The notes below the pieces were generated by a model. The model ran no database searches, was not told the DNA's origin, and was given only the letters and a program-made list of their open reading frames with translations. The position numbers and the translations under genes were made by a program. Of a stretch of DNA of 64,000 nucleotides, positions 5,585 through 54,318 are shown one piece after another (positions within the stretch are counted from its first letter, which is position 1; each line of letters opens with the position of its first letter). The stretch covers positions 138,434 through 202,433 of the forward strand of contig NZ_JARUJP010000006.1 in assembly GCF_033659955.1 (NCBI RefSeq), written 5' to 3'. This DNA is from Clostridium tanneri. GTDB lineage: Bacteria > Bacillota > Clostridia > Clostridiales > Clostridiaceae.

Positions 5585-5624
5585 ATATTGTTTTACAGGT
5601 GTATATACACCTGTAAAACAATAT
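5585..5624. promoter_or_regulatory. 40-bp perfect palindrome (operator candidate) immediately upstream of nadA
   Basis: ATATTGTTTTACAGGTGTAT|ATACACCTGTAAAACAATAT, ending 24 nt before the nadA start codon. Confidence 0.5.
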
Positions 5625-21619: not shown

Positions 21620-21997
21620 TTTTCAAATAATAATCAAATGATAATAGATGAATATATAAACTCTTTCACAACATAGCAACTCCTCCTGAAATATTTATTT
21701 AAAATAAAAAACTCCGTCCTAATAAATAGGACGGAGATATCCGCGGTACCACCTAAATTGTGTTTAAAATAAACACCTCTTAATTTCAGGCACTAACATG
21801 CCTCATCCACTATAACGTGTGGCTTACGGTAATTGACTACTCTTTAAAAACTCTAAATTTCGATTTACTCCTCAAAGGCCCATTCACTGGTAACTATCGT
21901 ATTGAGATCACACCATCCTCAACTCTCTGTAACTAAGTAATACAGCTACTCTTCCTCATCAAAGGATTAATTAATATTAAACTGTATTTATATACTA
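21620..21997 (-). promoter_or_regulatory. T-box riboswitch leader (probably Trp-specific) with promoter
   Basis: Minus strand: TTGACA-17-TGgTAGTAT promoter (22020..21992). The conserved T-box sequence AATTTAGGTGGTACCGCGG is at 21758..21740. A terminator follows, with candidate UGG specifier positions (GAAUGGG, GAUGGU). Confidence 0.7.
21701..21735 (-). terminator. T-box leader terminator
   Basis: Minus strand: CTCCGTCCT atttat AGGACGGAG followed by TTTTTTATTTT. The 5' arm overlaps the region that would pair with the T-box sequence in an antiterminator. Confidence 0.7.
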
Positions 21998-32396: not shown

Positions 32397-33821
32397 TTGA
32401 AAACTACTCTCTATTGGTTATTTTTAATTAACGCAATAGTATCTATATTTATAATTATATTAGAAAGGAAAAATCCAGAAAAAACTATTGCTTGGCTGCT
32501 AGTTTTTATTTTATTTCCTCCTATAGGTTTTTTTCTATATATATTCCTAGGACGAAACTGGAAAAAGCATAAACTTCATAATGAAACCAATATAAATGTG
32601 GAAAGACTAATCTATGAGGCAATAAAAAATGTAAAAAATAACAGTTACACTACTTTAATCGAATTACTCTCAAAAAACAGTGAGTCCCCTCTTTTTAAAG
32701 ACAATAGTATCAAAATCTTTAAAGATGGTACAGAAAAATTCGAATCATTAAAGGAAGAACTGTTAAAAGCTAAAAATCATATTCATATGGAATACTATAT
32801 TGTAAAAAGTGATGGTATAGGTAGTGAAATAAAAGAAATTCTTATAAAGAAATCTTTAGAAGGAGTGAAAGTAAGATTAATATTTGATAGAGTAGGCTGT
32901 ATAAAGTTAAAAAAATCCTACATCACAGAACTTAAAGAAGCGGGAGTAGATATAGTTCAATACTCTTATTTCTTAGCACCTTTGCTTAGGTATATTAATA
33001 CTCAAATTAATTATCGAAACCATAGAAAAATTGTAGTAATAGATGGCCAGGTTGGCTTTGTTGGAGGTATAAATATAGGAGATGAGTATATAGGAAAAAG
33101 TAAATTTGGATACTGGAGAGACACTCACATTATGGTAAAAGGTGATTTCGCCTATGGTCTTCAAGCAGTATTTTTAGATGATTTTGCAACTATAAAGTCA
33201 GCCAATAAGGAAGAGTTTTCCTACGGAGACAATTTCGAAGATTTTTTTCCCCAAACCAAGTATGGCAACGGAAAACTAATGCAATTAGTAAAAAGTGGAC
33301 CTGATTCAGAATTTCCAGCAATCGAGCAGGCAGTTTTAAAAATGATAAGTATGGCACAGGACCATATTTATATAACAACTCCTTATTTTATCCCAAGTGA
33401 AAGCATCTTAAATGCTTTAAAAATTGCTGTACTAAGCGGCGTTAGTGTTCATATTTTATTTCCTGGAAAATATGATCACCTCCTAGTTCATTATGCTTCA
33501 AGAACATATCTAGAAGATTTAGCTAGAAATGGGGTAAAGATATATTTTTATGACTATAATGGATTTATCCACGGGAAAACTACTTCTATAGATGGAAAGA
33601 TATGTACAATAGGCACTGCTAATATGGATATAAGAAGCTATGTATTAAACTATGAAATCAACGCTGTAATTTACGATGAGGAAACTACAGAAGAACTGGA
33701 AAATTTATTTTTTGAGGACTTGAAAAGAAGCAAAAGGATAACAGAAGACTTTTTTAACAATCTTTCTCCAATTACAAAAGCCTTTGAAGCCTTCTGCAGA
33801 ATGTTTTCATCACTATTATAA
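32397..33821 (+). CDS. cls: cardiolipin synthase
   Basis: Two N-terminal TM helices and two PLD HKD motifs (HRKIVVIDG and HGKTTSIDG). TTG start after AAGGAGGTGGAAA. Confidence 0.9.
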   Translation: MKTTLYWLFLINAIVSIFIIILERKNPEKTIAWLLVFILFPPIGFFLYIFLGRNWKKHKLHNETNINVERLIYEAIKNVKNNSYTTLIELLSKNSESPLFKDNSIKIFKDGTEKFESLKEELLKAKNHIHMEYYIVKSDGIGSEIKEILIKKSLEGVKVRLIFDRVGCIKLKKSYITELKEAGVDIVQYSYFLAPLLRYINTQINYRNHRKIVVIDGQVGFVGGINIGDEYIGKSKFGYWRDTHIMVKGDFAYGLQAVFLDDFATIKSANKEEFSYGDNFEDFFPQTKYGNGKLMQLVKSGPDSEFPAIEQAVLKMISMAQDHIYITTPYFIPSESILNALKIAVLSGVSVHILFPGKYDHLLVHYASRTYLEDLARNGVKIYFYDYNGFIHGKTTSIDGKICTIGTANMDIRSYVLNYEINAVIYDEETTEELENLFFEDLKRSKRITEDFFNNLSPITKAFEAFCRMFSSLL

Positions 33822-33896
33822 GAAGTATTATGGGACACAAAAATTTGAAGCACCAGTGTTCAGTGCTTCAAATTTTTGTATCGCATAAAACTGCTT

Positions 33897-35900
33897 TTAT
33901 GATACTATTTCCTCACTACCTTCTTTAATAAGTCCTTTTCTATAAGCTATTAAAAGCTTTTCTAAATCAGCTACTCTTTCTCTTAAGCCTACTCCTACAT
34001 CAGTATCTGCAACTCTCTTTCGTGCAACTACATGTTCTAATATTCTAGTAGAGGAGATGATATCCTTGTCCTCTTGAACCGCCCTTTTAATAGCTGCAAA
34101 TGGTTCGTGGGATGTAAGCAACAGACCATAGGAATTATAAATTAGTGTATATCCTGCAATCCCTGTTTGTGGTTGATAAGCTTTACAAAAGCCCCCATCA
34201 ATAACAAGAAGCCGTCCATTTGCTTTAATAGGACTCTCCCCTTCCTTAGTTTTTACAGGAATATGTCCATTAATAATATGGGAAGTATTAGGATTAAGAT
34301 TAAACTCAGATAAAATATTCTTGCATACCTGTTCATTATCTCTATACTTATAATAATAATCTTTTTCCTCATAATGAGTGGATTTATCGTCAATGAAATA
34401 TCTTTCAAAGGTAGTCATTCTCTTCTTCCCAAATACAGGTGAATCTGGTCCACACCATAAATACCACATCATGTCCATTCCGTATTTCTTCAATTTAATG
34501 TCATCTTTGAAGAAATAGGAATCTCTTGCAACCCTGTCAATTCTATCCAAAAGTGCCTTACCACTATATTTTATAGTTCCTATTTTTACTTCTTTAAAGC
34601 TTCCATCTTCTTTTAAAGGTATACATCCATGGAATAAAAGATTAGAATTATAAGTTAAATACATACTTCCTTTACTATATAAAAACTTAATATGTCTCTG
34701 TAATTTTTCACTGTTAACAAAAGATGCTGTTAGCTTTTTAAGTAAATCTTCTTCTCTCTCAGTTAACTTATAAGGATCGCTCCAATCAACAGTTGGAAAC
34801 ACTATATCATTAAGTTTATAATTTTTTCCGTATAACTGGATTTCTTCGGTTTCCACATTTATTTTATCTAAAAGCAATCTGTCATCCATTTGAAACTCTG
34901 GATGCCTTTTAATAATATGACCTTCTACTTTAAATTGAAGCAAAGAAATAGCCTTATGCATCTTAGCAAGAAGATTTAATTCATTTTCACTTACATTCTT
35001 GTCTAATGTTTTAGATACAAAGCCCTTGCAGGAATCATCATTGTAAAACTCCATAGCAAAGGTAGCTAAAGGTAGTAGATTAATGCCATATCCATCTTCA
35101 ATAGTTCTGAGGTTCGCATATCTAAGGGATATTCTAAGTACATTACAGATACAAGCCTCACAGCCAGCTGCAGCTCCCATCCATAATAAATCATGATTTC
35201 CCCACTGTATATCTACTGAGTGATGATCCATTAATGCATCCATTATTATTTCAGCACCAGGTCCCCTGTCATATATATCTCCTATAATGTGTAATCTATC
35301 TACTACTAATCTTTGTATAACGTTAGATATAGCAATGATAAATTCTCCTGCTCTATCTATATCGATTATAGTTTTTATAATACCATTATAGTACGCCTGT
35401 TTATCCACTCTATCATCATGTTCATGAAGCAACTCTTCAATTATATATGCAAAATCTTGAGTTAAAGCCTTTCTAACTTTCGAACGAGTATATTTTGAAC
35501 ATATATTTTTGCACAAATCAATTAGTTGATAAAGAGTTATTTTATACCAGTCCTCAAGATTAGTTTCCGTTTGCTTAATCAGCTCTAACTTTTGTTCTGG
35601 ATAGTAAATTAATGTTGCAAGACTAGACTTTTGCTCTTCCCTAAGTGAATTTCCAAACACATCGTCAATCTTTCTTTTTATCACACCTGAAGCATTTCTA
35701 AGCATATGGGTAAAGGACTCATATTCACCATGAACATCAGTCATAAAATGCTCTGTTCCTTTGGGCAAGTTTAAAATCGCCTGAAGGTTAATTATTTCCG
35801 TACTAGCAACTGAAATTGTTGGATATTGCTTAGATAATAATTGCAAATATCTTAAATCTTTTTCTATTAAATCCAAATTATTTTCATCATAGAAAATCAT
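33897..35900 (-). CDS. fbp: fructose-1,6-bisphosphatase class 3
   Basis: 667 aa, typical FBPase class III length and motifs ([12 protein letters not shown]). Confidence 0.9.
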
Positions 35901-45390: not shown

Positions 45391-47829
45391 TTAGGCCCTA
45401 TCTATCTTCATTGCTCTCATTGCATTTAGCACTGCTATCAATGCCACTCCTACATCTCCGAATACGGCTTCCCACATAGTAGCCACACCTAAAGCTCCTA
45501 AAACTAGTATTATAGCCTTAACTCCCAATGCAAATATTATATTCTGCCATACTATGCTTTTTGTCCTCTTAGCTATTTTAATTGCAGTAGCTATTTTAGA
45601 AGGCTCATCTGTCATAATTACTACATCTGCCGCTTCTATAGCCGCATCAGAACCTATTCCTCCCATAGCTATTCCTATATCCGCCCTTGCAAGTACAGGA
45701 GCGTCATTAATTCCATCTCCTACAAATATCAGCTTACTCTTAGAGGATTTTTCTCTATCTAGTTTTTCTAATTTCTCAACCTTTTGATTTGGTAAAAGTT
45801 CTGAATACACTTCGTCAAGACCTAAGCCGCTAGCTATCTTCTCTGCGGCAATCTTATTGTCGCCAGTAAGCATTACAGTCTTCTTAACTCCAACAGCTCT
45901 TAAAGCTTCTATTGCCCTTGCTGAATCTTCCTTTAATTCATCAGAGATAAGTATATAACCTGCATATTGTCTATCCACAGCCAGATAAACTACTGTTCCT
46001 ACTACTTCTGTAGTATCATATGAAATTCCTTGACTCTTCATTAACCTTGAATTTCCTGCTAATATTTCTTTTCCTTTTAATCTTACTTTCACTCCTTGGC
46101 CTGAAATTTCATTATAACCTTGAACTTCCTCTTTTTTCACTCTTTTACCATAAGCGTTTAATATAGATGTTGCAATAGGGTGACTTGAGTAACTTTCTGC
46201 ATATGCCGCATATTCTAGTAACTCTTCTCTTGTAACATTTCTCTTAGGCTTTATTTCTGTAACTTTAAATACTCCCTTTGTTAAAGTACCAGTTTTGTCG
46301 AATATTACTGTCTCTACATTATTAAGAGCTTCCAAGTAGTTTCCACCTTTTACAAGAATACCATTTTTAGATGCTCCACCTATTCCTCCAAAGAACCCAA
46401 GAGGAATCGAAACAACTAAAGCACAAGGGCAGGAAACCACTAGAAAAACTAATGCTCTATACAACCATTCTGAAAAGGTTGCTCCAGTTATAAATAATGG
46501 TGGTAAGAAAGCTAAAGCTGCTGCAAGTATTACAACTGCTGGTGTATAATATCTTGCGAATTTAGTTATGAAACTCTCCGTTGGTGCTTTTTTACTACTT
46601 GCGTTTTGTACTAAGTCTAGTATTTTAGCTACTGTTGACTCCCCAAACTCTTTAGTTATTTTAATAGTTAAAAGTCCATTCTTATTTATAAAACCGCCTA
46701 GCACATTATCTCCAGATTGAACTTCTCTAGGAAGAGACTCACCGGTTAAGGCTGATGTATCAAGCATAGAACTTCCTTCAACTACCTTACCATCCAAGGG
46801 AATCTTCTCACCAGGCTTTACCAAAATAAAATCTCCCACCTTAACTTCTTCTGGTGCTACCCTTTTTATACTCTGTCCAACTTTCACATTTGCAAAGTCT
46901 GGTCTAATATTCATCAGTTCAGATATAGATTTTCTAGATCGATCCACTGCTAAGTCCTGAAAAAACTCGCCTATTTGATAAAACATCATAACCGCTACAG
47001 CTTCTGGAAATTGTTTAATTGCAAAGGCTCCTATGGTCGCTATACACATTAAGAAATTCTCATCAAAAATTTGCCCTCTACCTATATTTTTGATTGCTTT
47101 TATTAATACCTCTCCTCCTATTAATAAATAACTTACCAGGTATAGGGTAAACTCTATCCAAAAGGAAAAGTTTAAAACTGTAGCTATTCCGAAGGCAGCA
47201 GCGCCTAATGCAAATTTTACAAAATCGTCTTTGTCCACACCTCCATGTTCATGAGTATGCTGATGACTTTCTAAGCTTTTAGTTTTACCCTGCTCCCCTA
47301 TAATCACTTTTACATCTGGCTCTATTCTATTTACAATCTTTGTTACTTCATGAAAAATTTCATCTCTTCTATTAGTATCTATTATATCTATAATTAACTT
47401 TTTAGATACAAAGTCTACTGTGGCTGCTTGTACACCAAGTATCTTTTCCGTTTCTCTTTCAATTTTAGCTGCACAGTTTGCACAACACAATCCTTCTAAT
47501 ATTAATACTGTCTTAACGCTCTTGTCTGTTACTTTTTCTCTAACCACTACATCCGGTTCTATTTTATTTATGATACTTTTTGCTGCTGCTATAAATTCGT
47601 CCATCTTGTTTATTTCTTCTAATTCTACCGCTAAAGTTTTTGTAATAAAGTTCATAGAGGCACTGGCTACTCCATTTAACTGTCCAACCTTCTGCTCAAT
47701 TTTAGCTGCACAGTTTGCACAGCATAACCCCTCTAATATTAATTCTTTTTTGAGCTTTCCCGGTTTCTTTTTAACTACTGTTATAAGATTTCCACCAGTC
47801 ACTCCCTTTTCTTTAACATTAGTATCCAT
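45391..47829 (-). CDS. cadA: Cd2+/Zn2+-type P1B heavy-metal-translocating ATPase with two N-terminal HMA domains
   Basis: Two GLCCANCAAKIE metal-binding domains (CadA-type CANC motif), a His-rich stretch, a CPC motif in TM6 (SCPCALV), DKTGT and GDGIND. Confidence 0.85.
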   Translation of the reverse strand: MDTNVKEKGVTGGNLITVVKKKPGKLKKELILEGLCCANCAAKIEQKVGQLNGVASASMNFITKTLAVELEEINKMDEFIAAAKSIINKIEPDVVVREKVTDKSVKTVLILEGLCCANCAAKIERETEKILGVQAATVDFVSKKLIIDIIDTNRRDEIFHEVTKIVNRIEPDVKVIIGEQGKTKSLESHQHTHEHGGVDKDDFVKFALGAAAFGIATVLNFSFWIEFTLYLVSYLLIGGEVLIKAIKNIGRGQIFDENFLMCIATIGAFAIKQFPEAVAVMMFYQIGEFFQDLAVDRSRKSISELMNIRPDFANVKVGQSIKRVAPEEVKVGDFILVKPGEKIPLDGKVVEGSSMLDTSALTGESLPREVQSGDNVLGGFINKNGLLTIKITKEFGESTVAKILDLVQNASSKKAPTESFITKFARYYTPAVVILAAALAFLPPLFITGATFSEWLYRALVFLVVSCPCALVVSIPLGFFGGIGGASKNGILVKGGNYLEALNNVETVIFDKTGTLTKGVFKVTEIKPKRNVTREELLEYAAYAESYSSHPIATSILNAYGKRVKKEEVQGYNEISGQGVKVRLKGKEILAGNSRLMKSQGISYDTTEVVGTVVYLAVDRQYAGYILISDELKEDSARAIEALRAVGVKKTVMLTGDNKIAAEKIASGLGLDEVYSELLPNQKVEKLEKLDREKSSKSKLIFVGDGINDAPVLARADIGIAMGGIGSDAAIEAADVVIMTDEPSKIATAIKIAKRTKSIVWQNIIFALGVKAIILVLGALGVATMWEAVFGDVGVALIAVLNAMRAMKIDRA
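47465..47741. repeat. intragenic tandem duplication (period 231 bp) encoding the two HMA domains of cadA
   Basis: ATTTTAGCTGCACAGTTTGCACAaCAcAAtCCtTCTAATATTAAT and ATTTTAGCTGCACAGTTTGCACAgCAtAAcCCcTCTAATATTAAT are repeated 231 bp apart. Confidence 0.6.
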
Positions 47830-47953
47830 ATTATTTCCCCCTTAAAATATTAAATTTAATAGTCTGAGGTTACTTTTAAATTTCAATGAATATTACACTT
47901 GATCCTAATTCATTATTTTTAGATTAACATATATTGGATAAAATGCAAATTTA

Positions 47954-48366: not shown

Positions 48367-48680
48367 TAAGTATAGTATACCATTTATGTTGTATCTGTCA
48401 ACTAGATTTACCATATTTGCTTAATAATATTATATTAAGATATAGGGTTTTTGTGACTCCTTATAAAGATATTTTATATTAATAAATATTGACATCTGCA
48501 TTATTTAAAGATATAATTTTTACTACAAAACAAAAAGAATACTTATCGGTTGGGCAAATTTAAAAATTTGCTTTCAAGCAGTTCGGTTTCTAGGGAGGGA
48601 AACTCTTTTATGAGTTTTCCTTCTTTTTATTTTTTGCATTTATGCTACTAAACAAAAAAGGTTAACAATTTAAAGTTATA

Positions 48681-48745: not shown

Positions 48746-49942
48746 ATGGTAAAACTTGCACGTAAAATTCTTGCCCCTTTTAGAGAATTTTTCAAACATG
48801 AATCTACTAGCGGCATTGTACTTATGATTTGCGCTATTATAGCAATAATTGCTGCAAACTCTCCCATAGCATCTACTTATAACAATATACTGCATAGCTA
48901 TGTAACCATTGGATATGGTAAGTACTCCTTATCAATGTCAGTTCTTCATTGGATAAATGATGGGCTAATGGCTGTGTTTTTCTTTGTCATTGGCATGGAA
49001 ATTAAAAGAGAAGTGCTAGTTGGTGAACTTAAGGATATTAAAAAAACCATACTTCCTGTAGCTGCTGCCTTTAGTGGAATGATTATCCCTGCATTAATTT
49101 ATATAGTGTTTAACTATAACCAAGAAACTATTGCTGGTTGGGGTACACCTATGGCCACTGATATAGCCTTTGCCTTAGGCATACTTTCGTTAGTAGGAAG
49201 GAAAAAAGCACCTAAAGGCCTTGCTGTTTTTTTAACTGCCTTAGCTATAGTAGATGACCTTGGTGCTATTTTGGTAATTGCTATATTCTATACTAACCAA
49301 ATTTCTTGGATAGCCCTTATAATTGCTCTGGCAATACTAATAATTCTTATACTGGCAAATAAATTCAAAGTCAACTCCGTCCCTGTATTTCTAACTTTAG
49401 GCCTTATTATGTGGGTTAGCTTTTTAAAGTCCGGTATACATGCAACTTTCGCTGGAGTTTTACTTGGAATGACAATACCATCTGGAAGAGATATTCGTAC
49501 ATTCAAAAAATCAATGTTGTATAAACTAGAACATCTTTTAGAGCCTTGGTCTGCACTTTTAATAATGCCTATATTTGCATTAGCTAACTCAGGGGTAACC
49601 ATTCAAATCAACAGCTTTACTGAACAGTTTTTAAACCCTGTCAGTCTTGGGATTTTCCTAGGTCTTTTCTTAGGAAAACAATTAGGTATTTTTATAACCT
49701 CTTATTTATTAGTTAAATTTCAAATCTCTAAGCTACCTTCAAAAGTAACCTTTAAGCATCTCTACGGTGCCAGCTTACTTAGCGGTATTGGGTTCACAAT
49801 GTCATTATTTATTGCATCACTATCCTTTACTGAGGGGCCTTTATTGTCTACTGCTAAGATTAGTATAATATCTGCATCCGTTGTATCGGCACTAGCAGGA
49901 TTTTTAGTTTTAAAATCCATTAAGACTGAGGCTAAAACTTAA
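48746..49942 (+). CDS. nhaA: Na+/H+ antiporter NhaA
   Basis: 398 aa with the NhaA family signature (GLALGIP-like, DD in TM5: IVDDLGAI). Confidence 0.9.
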   Translation: MVKLARKILAPFREFFKHESTSGIVLMICAIIAIIAANSPIASTYNNILHSYVTIGYGKYSLSMSVLHWINDGLMAVFFFVIGMEIKREVLVGELKDIKKTILPVAAAFSGMIIPALIYIVFNYNQETIAGWGTPMATDIAFALGILSLVGRKKAPKGLAVFLTALAIVDDLGAILVIAIFYTNQISWIALIIALAILIILILANKFKVNSVPVFLTLGLIMWVSFLKSGIHATFAGVLLGMTIPSGRDIRTFKKSMLYKLEHLLEPWSALLIMPIFALANSGVTIQINSFTEQFLNPVSLGIFLGLFLGKQLGIFITSYLLVKFQISKLPSKVTFKHLYGASLLSGIGFTMSLFIASLSFTEGPLLSTAKISIISASVVSALAGFLVLKSIKTEAKT

Positions 49943-49967
49943 AGCTAGGCCATTGTCCTAAATACTA

Positions 49968-50051
49968 AAAGTTTGGGTGCACTGAACACCGGTGTGACCG
50001 ATAGAGGTATACTGCTACCTACACACCTGTTTTTAGTGCACCCAAAAGTTT
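49968..50051 (+). terminator. compound (nested) hairpin terminator after nhaA
   Basis: Outer arms AAAAGTTTGGGTGCACT / AGTGCACCCAAAAGTTTT. Inner GGTGTG...CACACC followed by TGTTTTT. Confidence 0.5.
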
Positions 50052-50139
50052 TATAACGCTAGGGCTTATCGCCCTATAATATAAGGATATTTTTATTTAG
50101 ATAAAAAGGAAAGTTATGGTAAGAATTAAAACTTAGTAA

Positions 50140-50347
50140 CCTGTGTGTAGGTAGTTATGTAGTGTGAAAATTAGCTTCAATCAAGACTACAGCCTCTTAT
50201 TCTGGCGAGTTTAAAAAGGACTCAAATTTTTCAGTTCTCGAAGAGACGCATTGAAAAATTTGACCTTTTTAAAAATCGAGCCAGCATTAGAGGCTGTTGT
50301 CGAAGTGAGGGCTAATAGAACACTACATAACTGCCCACATACACAGG
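50140..50347. ncRNA. roughly 208-nt rod-like nested inverted-repeat element (candidate 6S-like structured RNA or MITE remnant)
   Basis: Closing helix 50140-50166/50321-50347 with a 13-bp perfect core AGTTATGTAGTGT/ACACTACATAACT. Helices 50189-50197/50289-50297 and 50210-50219/50264-50273. Apical 11-bp stem 50222-50232/50253-50263 with a 20-nt loop. The strand is unresolved. Confidence 0.3.
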
Positions 50348-50392
50348 CTGCCAAGTCTAATTGCTAGGCTACCTTTGTGTCGCATAATAATG

Positions 50393-50884
50393 CTACATAT
50401 CCATCTTCATATTTGACATATCATTTATAATTGAAGGATCTACCATACCAAAAATCATTGCAATATGTGCAACAACTAAGAAACCACCTACTAAAATAAA
50501 ATGAATTTTCATTTTTTCATTGTCAGTCTTTTTTCTAAATATAATACCTAGCTCCATTAATGCAATTGGAAGTAGGAATAAAACTCCACTTAGATAAAAA
50601 CCAACAGCTACCACATCTACCCAGGTATGCCAACCACCAGTTTTGGTTAAAGGAATAACTGCATTAAACAATAGATAAATAAAAATTCCTGTAAAATAAA
50701 AACCATCAAAAATTCCAACTACTTTATTCAGCGTCCTTAGGCCACCACTTTTAGTTCTGTTAAAAATAATAAAAAATTCAGTTATGGTAAGTGTTTCTGC
50801 CATTATAACAGGTATAGCCATAAATATTATTAAGTTCCAAGGCTGATTCTCTGCTAGAAGGGACATATAATGTGTCATGTTCAA
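50393..50884 (-). CDS. hypothetical integral membrane protein (163 aa)
   Basis: 4-5 predicted TM helices. No recognised motif. Confidence 0.5.
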   Translation of the reverse strand: MNMTHYMSLLAENQPWNLIIFMAIPVIMAETLTITEFFIIFNRTKSGGLRTLNKVVGIFDGFYFTGIFIYLLFNAVIPLTKTGGWHTWVDVVAVGFYLSGVLFLLPIALMELGIIFRKKTDNEKMKIHFILVGGFLVVAHIAMIFGMVDPSIINDMSNMKMDM

Positions 50885-50946
50885 TGTTATTACCTCCTCT
50901 TTTTCTTTGAGAAGATAATATCACTTTCTTATGAAGAAAATATGAA

Positions 50947-50986
50947 GAAAAAAATCAGGTAGTAAATGACCTACCTGATTTTTTTC
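50947..50986. terminator. bidirectional terminator
   Basis: AAAAAAATCAGGTAG taaatgac CTACCTGATTTTTTT. Confidence 0.65.
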
Positions 50987-50992
50987 TTCATA

Positions 50993-51193
50993 TTATTTTA
51001 AACCTTGCTCATAAGCTTCAACCATTTTTTTAACCATGTTTCCACCTACTGATCCAGCCTCTCTTGCTGTAAGATCTCCATTATAGCCTTCTTTTAAATC
51101 TACTCCTACTTCTCTAGCTGATTCCATTTTAAATTGATTTAATCCTGCCTTTGCTTCTGGTACTAATACTCTATTACTATTTCTGCTTGCCAT
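50993..51193 (-). CDS. ssp: alpha/beta-type small acid-soluble spore protein
   Basis: 66 aa; the family signature blocks are present in MASRNSNRVLVPEAKAGLNQFKMESAREVGVDLKEGYNGDLTAREAGSVGGNMVKKMV. Confidence 0.85.
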   Translation of the reverse strand: MASRNSNRVLVPEAKAGLNQFKMESAREVGVDLKEGYNGDLTAREAGSVGGNMVKKMVEAYEQGLK

Positions 51194-52536: not shown

Positions 52537-54318
52537 ATGACTTTAAAAAAAATAAAGATAAAAGTATATGATATGACCTGTTCATCTTGTGAAAAGACTA
52601 TTGAAGGAAAGCTTTTAAAGCAAGTTGGAGTTTTAAAGGCAAAAGCAGATTATGTTAAACAATTTGTAGCTATTGAGTTCGATTCGGATTTGTGCAGCTT
52701 AAATGAGCTAAAAACTATTATAAATAATGCAGGGTACTCTACTGAAAAATCTGGAAGCTTTCATCTAGCTGGAATATTTGTAATCGCAGCAGCTATTATT
52801 CTACTTGGTTCTTCAACTTCTGGAATTGATATGAGCAGTATGCTAAATGGTGCTACCTACTTTGTTCTGTTTATAGTGGGAATCCTGACATCTATTCACT
52901 GTGTAGGTATGTGCGGTGGAATAATGCTCTCTCAAAGTTTATCATATAAAGACACTAGTAAGCTGGAAGCAATAAAACCAACATTATTATATAACCTAGG
53001 AAGAGTAATCTCTTATACTATTTTAGGAGGCATAGTTGGTGCCCTAGGTTCTGTTTTATCTCTTTCTTTAAGAACTCAATCAGCACTTCAAATTTTTGCA
53101 GGGATATTTATGATCATAATGGGGCTTAATATGGCTGGTTTTTCCTTGTTTAGGAAGCTTCAAGTAAAACTTCCTTGGTCTTTTTGTAAGGTTAAAAACA
53201 AACCAAAAGCCCCTTTTGTAGTAGGTATTTTAAACGGCTTTATGCCCTGCGGCCCCCTGCAAACTATGCAGCTCTATGCTTTAGGCACAGGTAGTGCATT
53301 AAAAGGCGCCTTATCAATGTTTATATTCGCTCTTGGAACAGTGCCTTTAATGATGACTTTTGGTGCAATTTCAGGACTGCTAAGCAAAGGGTATACAAAG
53401 AAAATTTTAAAATTTAGCGGAATTCTTGTGGTGGTTCTTGGGCTTATAATGGGAAGAAGAGGCCTGGCACTAGCCGGTGTAAACCTCCCTACAATAGGCT
53501 CACTTATGCCACAAAGGGCTGTAGGATCTTCTGGTGCAAATGTAGCTAAAGCTACATTAAAAGATGGTGTTCAAATTATAAATATGACTGCAGACAGCAG
53601 CGGATATATTCCTAATGCTTTTTATGTCCAAAAAGGTATTCCAGTTAAATGGATAATTGATGGTAAGCAAATTACATCCTGTAATAACGAAATTGTTGTT
53701 CCTTCTCAAAATATAAGAAAAAAACTAAAAAGTGGAGAAAATATAATAGAATTTACACCAACAGCTGATGATATTACCTTTAGCTGCTGGATGGGAATGA
53801 TAAGAGGAGTTATTAAAGTAACAGATAATTTAGATTCAGTGGATACATCCAAAACAGATTCCTCCCTGCCTCCTGCAGGAAGCAGCGGCTGCTGTGGAGG
53901 AGGCGCTGCTGTACCTCAACAGGACAGTATTTACGGTGATTTAAGTAAAGTTCCTACTGAGATAGTAGTTAACAAAGCTTTGGTAGTTGGTAATAATCAA
54001 AGCACTACAATTAAAGGAGTTGGTTACGAACTAAAGCCTCTCATCGTTGTTGTAGATAAGGACAAAAAGACTAAGCTAACCTTTGACTTAACTTCCTTTG
54101 ATAACGCTGAAGGAAGATTTGATTTGGTATCTGCTGAAACCGGTGATGTACTAACATATTTTGAAGGAAAAAAAGGAGTTGTGGACCTAGAGATAACTTT
54201 CGATAAACTAGGTGGCTATGGGATAGTTAAAGATGAAACTATTCTTGGTGTTATCGAAGTTGTAGAGGATGTAAAAAAAGCTAATCTTGAGGAAATAAGA
54301 AAAAAATACATTGAATAG
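52537..54318 (+). CDS. HMA-domain / DsbD_2-type transmembrane / cupredoxin-like C-terminal fusion protein (putative metal-handling)
   Basis: N-terminal MTCSSCEKTIE HMA motif; TM core with HCVGMCGG and NGFMPCGP; Cys/Met-rich soluble region (ITSCNNEIVVP...FSCWMGMIRG, GCCGGG). Confidence 0.6.
   Translation: MTLKKIKIKVYDMTCSSCEKTIEGKLLKQVGVLKAKADYVKQFVAIEFDSDLCSLNELKTIINNAGYSTEKSGSFHLAGIFVIAAAIILLGSSTSGIDMSSMLNGATYFVLFIVGILTSIHCVGMCGGIMLSQSLSYKDTSKLEAIKPTLLYNLGRVISYTILGGIVGALGSVLSLSLRTQSALQIFAGIFMIIMGLNMAGFSLFRKLQVKLPWSFCKVKNKPKAPFVVGILNGFMPCGPLQTMQLYALGTGSALKGALSMFIFALGTVPLMMTFGAISGLLSKGYTKKILKFSGILVVVLGLIMGRRGLALAGVNLPTIGSLMPQRAVGSSGANVAKATLKDGVQIINMTADSSGYIPNAFYVQKGIPVKWIIDGKQITSCNNEIVVPSQNIRKKLKSGENIIEFTPTADDITFSCWMGMIRGVIKVTDNLDSVDTSKTDSSLPPAGSSGCCGGGAAVPQQDSIYGDLSKVPTEIVVNKALVVGNNQSTTIKGVGYELKPLIVVVDKDKKTKLTFDLTSFDNAEGRFDLVSAETGDVLTYFEGKKGVVDLEITFDKLGGYGIVKDETILGVIEVVEDVKKANLEEIRKKYIE

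Follow-up and report, generated by a model that had tools for sequence, protein, structure and literature searches.

Within a 64,000-nt stretch of the Clostridium tanneri genome (contig NZ_JARUJP010000006.1, positions 138,434 to 202,433; hereafter the window), the spacer between the convergent genes nhaA and a DUF6803 membrane protein gene holds a long palindrome that folds into a single rod. Positions 50123–50390 are probably one copy, which we refer to as copy B, of a low-copy, lineage-restricted palindromic family of ~250–265 bp that resembles miniature inverted-repeat transposable elements (MITEs) and is now decaying. A second copy, copy A, lies beside it in shortened form. Among near-identical strains each copy varies as a discrete unit, being full length in some and internally deleted or missing in others, and the two copies are homologous, with the same rod, bulges and tip despite ~44% sequence divergence. 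The rods were acquired in the lineage of C. tanneri and Clostridium sp. CX1 and variably lost there, and as far as could be seen the family is confined to this lineage. An earlier account of the window made from its letters alone (the sequence-only reading) had offered two identities for the palindrome, a 6S-like RNA or a MITE or insertion sequence (IS) end remnant.

The two rods vary as discrete units among near-identical strains

Other assemblies of the locus were retrieved by exact-protein look-ups. In one of them, L001 (Logan SRR33114994), window position 50122 is joined straight to 50391, such that the 268 bp in between (50123–50390) are missing from flanks that are 98.9% and 99.7% identical to ours. 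The empty site reads GTTATAGTAA followed directly by TGCTACA, and the filled site of the window reads GTTATGGTAA, then the insertion (GAATT...GTCGCATAATAA), then TGCTACA. A two-copy nhmmer profile spans 50117–50389. Clostridium sp. CX1 (L023; GCA_025398335.1) is 99.4–99.6% identical to the window over the 13 kb compared, and the insertions and deletions (indels) that separate the two are confined to the two rods in this spacer. CX1 retains 36 bp of copy B, with 232 bp (50149–50380) deleted between ACCTGTGTGT and ACCTTTGTGT. In a sister species (L025), whose DUF6803 protein is 93% identical, nhaA and the DUF6803 gene are also convergent, the spacer measures 121 bp and contains an ordinary terminator, and neither copy of the rod is present in it.

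At copy A, the window carries only an 85-nt hairpin with 30-nt arms, inside which CX1 has 162 extra bp, placed at window position 50014/50015 between GGTATACTG and CTACC, to give a 247-bp rod. Copy A is full in CX1, SRR12632049 and SRR12632039, the latter two read at Logan contig ends, and short in the window, SRR33114994 and SRR28624187. The locus is represented by five allelic states, with copy B full, reduced to a stub or absent and copy A full or short. By its single-nucleotide polymorphisms (SNPs), the window resembles L001 and not CX1 on the nhaA side, so haplotype recombination accounts for the allele combinations without recurrent events. One SNP, at 50118 within the left flanking repeat of copy B, is private to the window strain.

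The repeat that flanks copy A differs among samples, reading AAAAGTTT, AAAAATTT or AAAGGTTT. The Logan short-read contigs that carry nhaA (L150–L155) all end within copy A, 63–102 nt past the stop codon, and one of them ends exactly where the full and short alleles of copy A part; these ends inside copy A indicate that the hairpin, or the coexistence of two alleles, breaks assemblies.

Each of the three indels ends at a pair of short, imperfect direct repeats (GTATACTGCT/GTATACCCCT, ACCTGTGTGT/ACCTTTGTGT and ATAGTAA/ATAATAA), with 2–5 bp of microhomology at the junctions. When copies A and B are placed in homologous alignment, the indel boundaries are out of register (20 nt apart in the left arm), which identifies the short forms as deletion derivatives of full-length copies and not as sites awaiting an inner unit. 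Nested insertion of an inner unit was considered as an alternative and is excluded by this difference in boundaries between A and B.

Copies A and B are homologous and share one architecture

The CX1-specific 162 bp of copy A align to the reverse complement of copy B with a local score of 50, against 17.9 ± 2.6 (maximum 33) for 500 dinucleotide shuffles. The copies lie ~70 bp apart in opposite orientation and are 56% identical over their whole length. Islands common to both are AGCCCTCAYTTC, TCTAATGCTGGCTC, TCTTCGA, CCAGMATAAGA and CTACCTACACAC, and the outer parts of the rods are homologous too, as seen for example in GTGTGTAGGTAG. Copy A, whose ends carry GGGTGCACTGAAC, is bounded by inverted-repeat ends (GGGTGCACTGAACACCGGTGTG against GGGTGCACTAAAAACAGGTGTG) that match at 18 of 22 positions, and the AAAAGTTT pair around it matches 8/8 as a direct repeat and 6/8 as an inverted one.

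The sequence-only reading had described copy B as one imperfect rod of 208 nt at 50140–50347, built from nested inverted repeats. Each of these repeats was found where it had been placed: 50142–50165 with 50320–50343 (24 nt, 88% complementary, holding a 13-bp perfect core), 50185–50206 with 50280–50301 (22 nt, 86%), 50210–50219 with 50264–50273 (10 nt, 100%) and 50222–50233 with 50252–50263 (12 nt, 100%). The rod is thus real and its extent is larger than proposed, as a further outer arm pair (50122–50146 with 50341–50365, 72%) lengthens it to ~245 nt, 50122–50366. Folding bears out a stability of about −110 kcal/mol on either strand: with dinucleotide shuffles as the null, the plus strand of 50120–50370 reaches −110.0 kcal/mol where shuffled sequences reach −54.1 ± 4.2 (z = −13.5; 0/200 as good), and the minus strand reaches −105.7 kcal/mol (z = −12.1). 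In a sliding 260-nt scan, the rod outranks every other segment of the window in stability and lies 6.3 SD below expectation after regression on GC content.

Two elements of the proposed shape do not survive folding. The two-sided bubble of 23 and 20 nt (50166–50188 and 50301–50320) is mostly paired in both the minimum-energy and the centroid folds, where ATTAGCT-TCA pairs with TGAgGGCTAAT (with G·U on the plus strand) and only loops of 4–5 nt remain, and the 20-nt apical loop folds on as TCTC-GAA-GAGA down to a 3-nt GAA loop. The minus-strand T-run at 50100–50135, taken as a terminator-like run after the rod, is in part (50123–50135) the element itself. A consensus scan found no sigma-70-like promoter or intrinsic terminator bracketing the rod. 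Open reading frames (ORFs) in its interior span only 20–47 codons and are not conserved between the copies, which together with the length of 261–268 bp makes the element short and non-coding, as MITEs are. These ORFs have no relatives in protein space apart from a lone weak match (E = 9e-4, to a 256-aa repeat protein) that we judged irrelevant, and no spurious ORF calls over other copies were found there either.

On the better-folding strand, both copies follow the same layout. In each, AGCT-TC(G/A) faces TGAgGGCT with a bulged G, a TCTtATGCTGG / CCAGCATtAGA segment carries a t·t mismatch and a 2-nt bulge, and an AT-rich distal helix then leads to a TTCGAA-centred tip with a GAA loop. One helix has been wholly rewritten, being ACAGCC/GGCTGT in one copy and AGAAGG/CCTTCT in the other, and the arm opposite the conserved island GTGTGTAGGTAG differs between the copies and pairs partly by G·U. 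The consensus structure on this strand comprises 66 pairs, all formed in both copies, of which 16 are changed on both sides. When the partner columns were slid by 1–3 positions, 39–45% of cells were paired and 0–3 pairs were double-sided, a comparison that is generous, as the consensus was built from the same two sequences.

One strand of the element folds better than the other

The full copy A of CX1 (247 nt, L023 4152–4398) folds at −128.2 kcal/mol on one element strand and −105.7 kcal/mol on the other, with 9 vs 1 G·U pairs, and copy B at −109.7 (plus) and −105.4 kcal/mol (minus), with 5 vs 4. The consensus energy is −56.9 kcal/mol on the better strand vs −32.5 on the other. On one element strand, G·U pairs outnumber A·C mismatches, a hint that selection has acted on the fold in single-stranded form, as RNA or single-stranded DNA (ssDNA).

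This asymmetry is the basis for a reading in which the rod is first of all a functional, strand-specific structured element, with its mobility and decay secondary. It might be a mobile gene for a non-coding RNA, or a hairpin site in ssDNA that is bound by an HUH/tyrosine-type enzyme or a priming system of the single-strand origin kind, and the conserved bulges would serve for recognition. We regard this as unlikely, although these bulges and the G·U strand bias are the only features that might raise the rod above a repeat element. It would account for the better folding of the same strand in both copies and in the consensus, for helices rewritten by double changes while the 2-nt bulge, 1-nt bulge, t·t mismatch and GAA tip were kept, and for conservation that lies mostly on one arm. 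However, only two sequences are compared, their shared bulges may reflect common descent, and only in copy A does the asymmetry reach significance. No Rfam family, ribozyme, promoter or associated enzyme gene was seen, and strains lose the rod without obvious compensation. Single-strand origins (sso) of rolling-circle plasmids and integron attC sites are strand-specifically folded single strands of 60–300 nt, and the rod is like them in conserving structure, bulges and extrahelical bases above helix sequence, but it has no plasmid, Rep or integrase context and no match in plasmid and phage collections. That the rods constitute a new class of mobile, strand-specifically folded RNA or ssDNA element of ~250 nt is quite unlikely; in that case a partner, perhaps an enzyme that works on hairpins in single strands or a factor that binds RNA, would recognize the conserved bulges and t·t mismatch together with the one-arm islands and the GAA tip, while the helix sequences were free to co-vary, and the element would be a functional structured nucleic acid and not inert debris of a transposon.

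The nhaA–DUF6803 spacer and other features of the window

The coordinates of the rods, their repeats and islands, and the flanking genes are collected in Table 1. The interval between the two genes (49943–50392) is long, at 450 bp, as the sequence-only reading had noted, and GC-rich only mildly (0.38, vs a window mean of 0.32, standard deviation 0.046 in 268-bp tiles). The spacer between the copies contains a small hairpin, TAGGGC-TTATC-GCCCTA. The DUF6803 gene is annotated with a 163-aa product from a TTG at 50884, with an alternative 161-aa form from an ATG at 50878. Its protein is 100% identical to that of C. tanneri A1-XYC3, and the SASP protein encoded nearby is common to the window, CX1 and C. 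tanneri.

Table 1. Positions in the window of the two rods, their repeats and conserved islands, and the neighbouring genes
Feature	Position	Strand	Basis or remark
nhaA, Na+/H+ antiporter (PF06965)	48746..49942	+	upstream flanking gene
Copy A remnant, 85-nt hairpin, 30-nt arms	49967..50051	− (opposite to copy B)	inverted repeats, CX1 alignment
Direct repeat AAAAGTTT, left of copy A	49967..49974		sequence; candidate target-site duplication
Direct repeat AAAAGTTT, right of copy A	50044..50051		sequence
Spacer between copies A and B, 71 bp, AT-rich	50052..50122		in every strain examined
Left flanking direct repeat of copy B, ATGGTAA (ATAGTAA in L001 and CX1)	50116..50122		candidate target-site duplication or slippage repeat
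Rod, continuous imperfect hairpin (elem-)	50122..50366	+ (slightly better-folding strand)	inverted repeats, folding
Copy B, rod insertion, 268 bp (261 bp if 50384–50390 is duplicated target)	50123..50390		L001 junction
Direct repeat ACCTGTGTGT, left end of CX1 deletion	50139..50148		CX1 alignment
Conserved island GTGTGTAGGTAG, 5′ arm	50143..50154	+	identical in both copies
Apical tip TCTC-GAA-GAGA	50236..50246	+	TTCGAA-centred with GAA loop in either copy
Conserved island GAGCCAGCATTAGA, 3′ arm	50278..50291	+	2-nt ‘ga’ bulge and t·t mismatch in both copies
Conserved island GAAGTGAGGGCT, single bulged G	50302..50313	+	part of the formerly proposed bubble
Direct repeat ACCTTTGTGT, right end of CX1 deletion	50371..50380		within the tail outside the inverted repeat
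Right flanking direct repeat of copy B, ATAATAA	50384..50390		6/7 vs the left repeat of other strains
DUF6803 membrane protein (PF20617)	50393..50884	−	convergent flanking gene

Upstream of nhaA, a Na+ riboswitch aptamer (RF03071, DUF1646 motif) lies on the plus strand at 48548–48604 and scores 57.1 bits vs a gathering score of 40.5; its position ~140 nt before the nhaA start fits sodium-responsive control of the antiporter. On the other side of the spacer, between the SASP and DUF6803 genes, a hairpin at 50934–50999, whose 29-nt arms are 93% complementary and which has T-runs on both strands, was flagged as terminator-like in either direction; as the two genes share a strand, SASP is probably the one that it terminates. 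Further downstream, the match to CX1 ends just past the gene ending near 54318: from 54334 onward (L023 1–101), CX1 has a different terminator and downstream sequence, and then its contig ends, marking a strain-specific breakpoint or island boundary.

Elsewhere in the window, a hairpin with 37-nt arms at 33817–33899 lies between the convergent genes for cardiolipin synthase and class 3 fructose-1,6-bisphosphatase. Its weak similarity to copy A at the terminus (GCACTGAACACYGGTG) and to copy B in the tail (TTTGTRTCGCATAA) made it a candidate for a third, deleted copy. This was set aside as unproven: the same 75-bp spacer is found in another sample, and a sister species keeps the flanking GCGACACAAAA. 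The hairpin is probably an ordinary bidirectional terminator, and less probably a deleted member of the family. The second strongest fold of the window is operator-like and unrelated to the rods; it lies in the region of a perfect 40-bp palindrome at 5585–5624 (ATATTGTTTTACAGGTGTAT and ATACACCTGTAAAACAATAT), just upstream of a quinolinate-synthase-like (nadA-like) ORF (MEINLNEEIIKLKKEKNAIILAHYYQRPEIQ...), and it resembles an NAD-regulon (NiaR-type) operator. A T-box leader (RF00230) on the minus strand at 21724–21971 scores 125 bits. The P-type ATPase gene at 45391–47829, also on the minus strand, encodes two N-terminal HMA domains with ~82% identical DNA (~47459–47537 and 47696–47772), and a long ORF on the opposite strand over these repeats (47420–47845) is almost certainly spurious.

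Discussion

The allele series and the homology of the copies are best described by a decaying, MITE-like palindromic family, and the events at this locus can be outlined as arrival followed by erosion. In the first step, two family members that had already diverged would have inserted into the permissive spacer between convergent genes, by transposition in trans. A divergence of 44% is too large to have built up at this site since the split from the sister species, which has neither copy, so the copies would have diverged before insertion. Insertion may have duplicated 7–8 bp of target, with AAAAGTTT (8/8) as the candidate at copy A and ATAGTAA/ATAATAA (6/7) at copy B, where TA or TAA would also be compatible. 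In the second step, the rods would have decayed by slipped-strand deletion between short imperfect direct repeats, stimulated by the hairpin and independent of transposase. We infer slipped-strand deletion because all three indels end at such repeats with microhomology. This erosion would leave shorter hairpins at the places where the terminators of the convergent genes would be. In strains with the full rod, transcription running on from nhaA or from the DUF6803 gene would place a very stable hairpin of ~100 bp in the RNA, where it is predicted to act as a 3′ stabilizer, a terminator or an RNase III substrate.

Bacterial MITEs and other hairpin-forming intergenic repeats include ERIC/IRU, Correia/NEMIS, RUP and Bacillus cereus bcr1, and when co-transcribed they can be terminators, RNA stabilizers or RNase III targets. 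Like these repeats, the rods are non-coding, fall in the 100–300 bp range, form one long imperfect hairpin on either strand, and are intergenic, often the case between convergent genes, with filled and empty sites in close strains and short flanking direct repeats. Known families, however, number tens to hundreds of copies in a genome and keep their termini well conserved, whereas for the rods only two adjacent copies are documented, which are 56% identical and most diverged at their termini, with no known parent IS and no member found outside one Clostridium lineage. The proposed decay is similar to the precise and nearly precise excision of Tn10 and Tn5, which have long inverted repeats, and to palindrome-stimulated deletion, processes that require no transposase. 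In both cases, deletions run between short direct repeats set symmetrically or asymmetrically in a long hairpin, and leave a clean site (copy B in L001) or a shorter hairpin or stub (copy A in the window, copy B in CX1). The difference is that the repeats at the rods are imperfect (8/10, 9/10 and 6/7), and that the process is deduced here from natural alleles.

Several observations weigh against a MITE-like family. The first group concerns copy number, as only two adjacent copies are known, short of what a classical high-copy MITE would show. No third copy was detected in the 64-kb window by a blastn self-search, a two-copy nhmmer search, an inverted-repeat scan or a fold scan, and blastn of both copies against plasmid and phage collections gave no match. 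Pattern scans of IMG/VR viral contigs gave zero or chance matches only, and two pattern scans of JGI metagenome contigs gave zero. Among GTDB species-representative genomes, the 19-mer GTRGGYAGTTATGTAGTGT, specific to the closing helix of copy B, gave four matches, all by chance, in Methylococcaceae and Bacteroidales, none extending past 19–21 nt; near-identical copy B sequences are therefore not widespread among these genomes, as judged by this 19-mer. In blastn, no similarity to element ends was found elsewhere in the window, and no parent IS or transposase was identified. The second group concerns the ends of the element. The arms of copy B pair from 50122 to 50365, leaving a 19-nt tail (50366–50383) outside the inverted repeat; A and B resemble each other least at their termini, the reverse of what typical MITEs show; and the candidate duplication at copy B is imperfect (6/7), so that the empty allele may just as well be a deletion. 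Finally, the pooled G·U counts (14 vs 5, p ~0.06) are a weak statistic, suggestive of selection on a single-stranded fold and not conclusive. In the literature, no described Clostridium MITE family matches the rod. The earlier proposal of a MITE or IS-end remnant is essentially right, in that the rod is a discrete indel unit with a diverged homologous copy beside it; of the many scattered near-identical copies with target-site duplications by which that proposal would have recognized a MITE, only two adjacent diverged copies were found, and none further in the 64-kb window.

Palindromes of the REP/BIME type and GTAG-tagged repeats (PMC3733652) are likewise extragenic, and the conserved island of the rods includes GTAGGTAG, but REPs are 20–40 bp long, high in copy number and RAYT-associated. 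At ~250 bp and low copy, with no further copies in 64 kb, the rods do not belong to this group. That paper reports none for Clostridium (0 occurrences).

Two other explanations of the locus dispense with a family of independent elements, and both are improbable. In one, A and B would be the inverted, structured ends of a single larger mobile element whose interior was lost, leaving a 70-bp scar. Two homologous, inverted copies 70 bp apart in one intergenic region, with none seen elsewhere, would suit such an origin. However, L001 lacks B exactly yet has A and the spacer, so B acts as its own unit; copy A has an 8/8 direct repeat of its own; a divergence of 44% is unlike the ends of one element; and the spacer contains no remnant coding sequence. 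In the other, the rods would be immobile, having formed locally at a terminator region through template-switch or inverted duplication, and would vary through palindrome instability. The three indels at short imperfect direct repeats with 2–5 bp microhomology are typical of slippage, and the lack of other copies would also be expected, but rods that are only 56% identical are too diverged for a lineage whose sister, with a 93% identical DUF6803 protein, has neither, and their helices differ by coordinated double changes and not by random decay.

The remaining candidate, a 6S (SsrS) or 6S-like regulatory RNA gene, which would mimic an open promoter to sequester RNA polymerase, is effectively refuted, and we reject it. 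The rod resembles 6S RNA in size (~200–250 nt), in being an extended hairpin with an interrupted, irregular middle, and in that 50166–50188 / 50301–50320, its poorest-paired part, contains a sequence island kept in both copies. Against this, RF00013 gave no match at E ≤ 10 under permissive filters with either copy (window 49700–50700; L023 4000–4500), where only sub-threshold plant and animal microRNA-precursor models, in effect generic long hairpins, were returned, and at gathering thresholds the whole window gave the T-box and the Na+ riboswitch only, with no RF00013. The large central bubble expected of 6S RNA is reduced to loops of 4–5 nt, both DNA strands of what is a DNA-level palindrome fold nearly equally well, and no promoter or terminator consensus surrounds it. 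The segment is neither conserved nor single-copy and syntenic, being missing in L001, a 36-bp remnant in CX1 and missing in the syntenic sister species, and this loss in near-identical strains argues against 6S RNA, a housekeeping gene that is not dispensable in this way. A false 6S or non-coding RNA candidate can thereby be struck from the annotation.

With the decaying MITE-like family as the probable reading, the long structured spacer between these convergent genes is explained as a strain-variable hairpin repeat. The locus offers a natural example of long palindromes that enter a Clostridium intergenic region and are then cut back by repeat-mediated deletion to hairpins the size of terminators. 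Short-read assemblies break at such elements, which can also alter the 3′ ends of mRNAs from adjacent genes. Should more copies bear out the single-strand signature, the family would become a candidate for a structured, mobile element of RNA or ssDNA.

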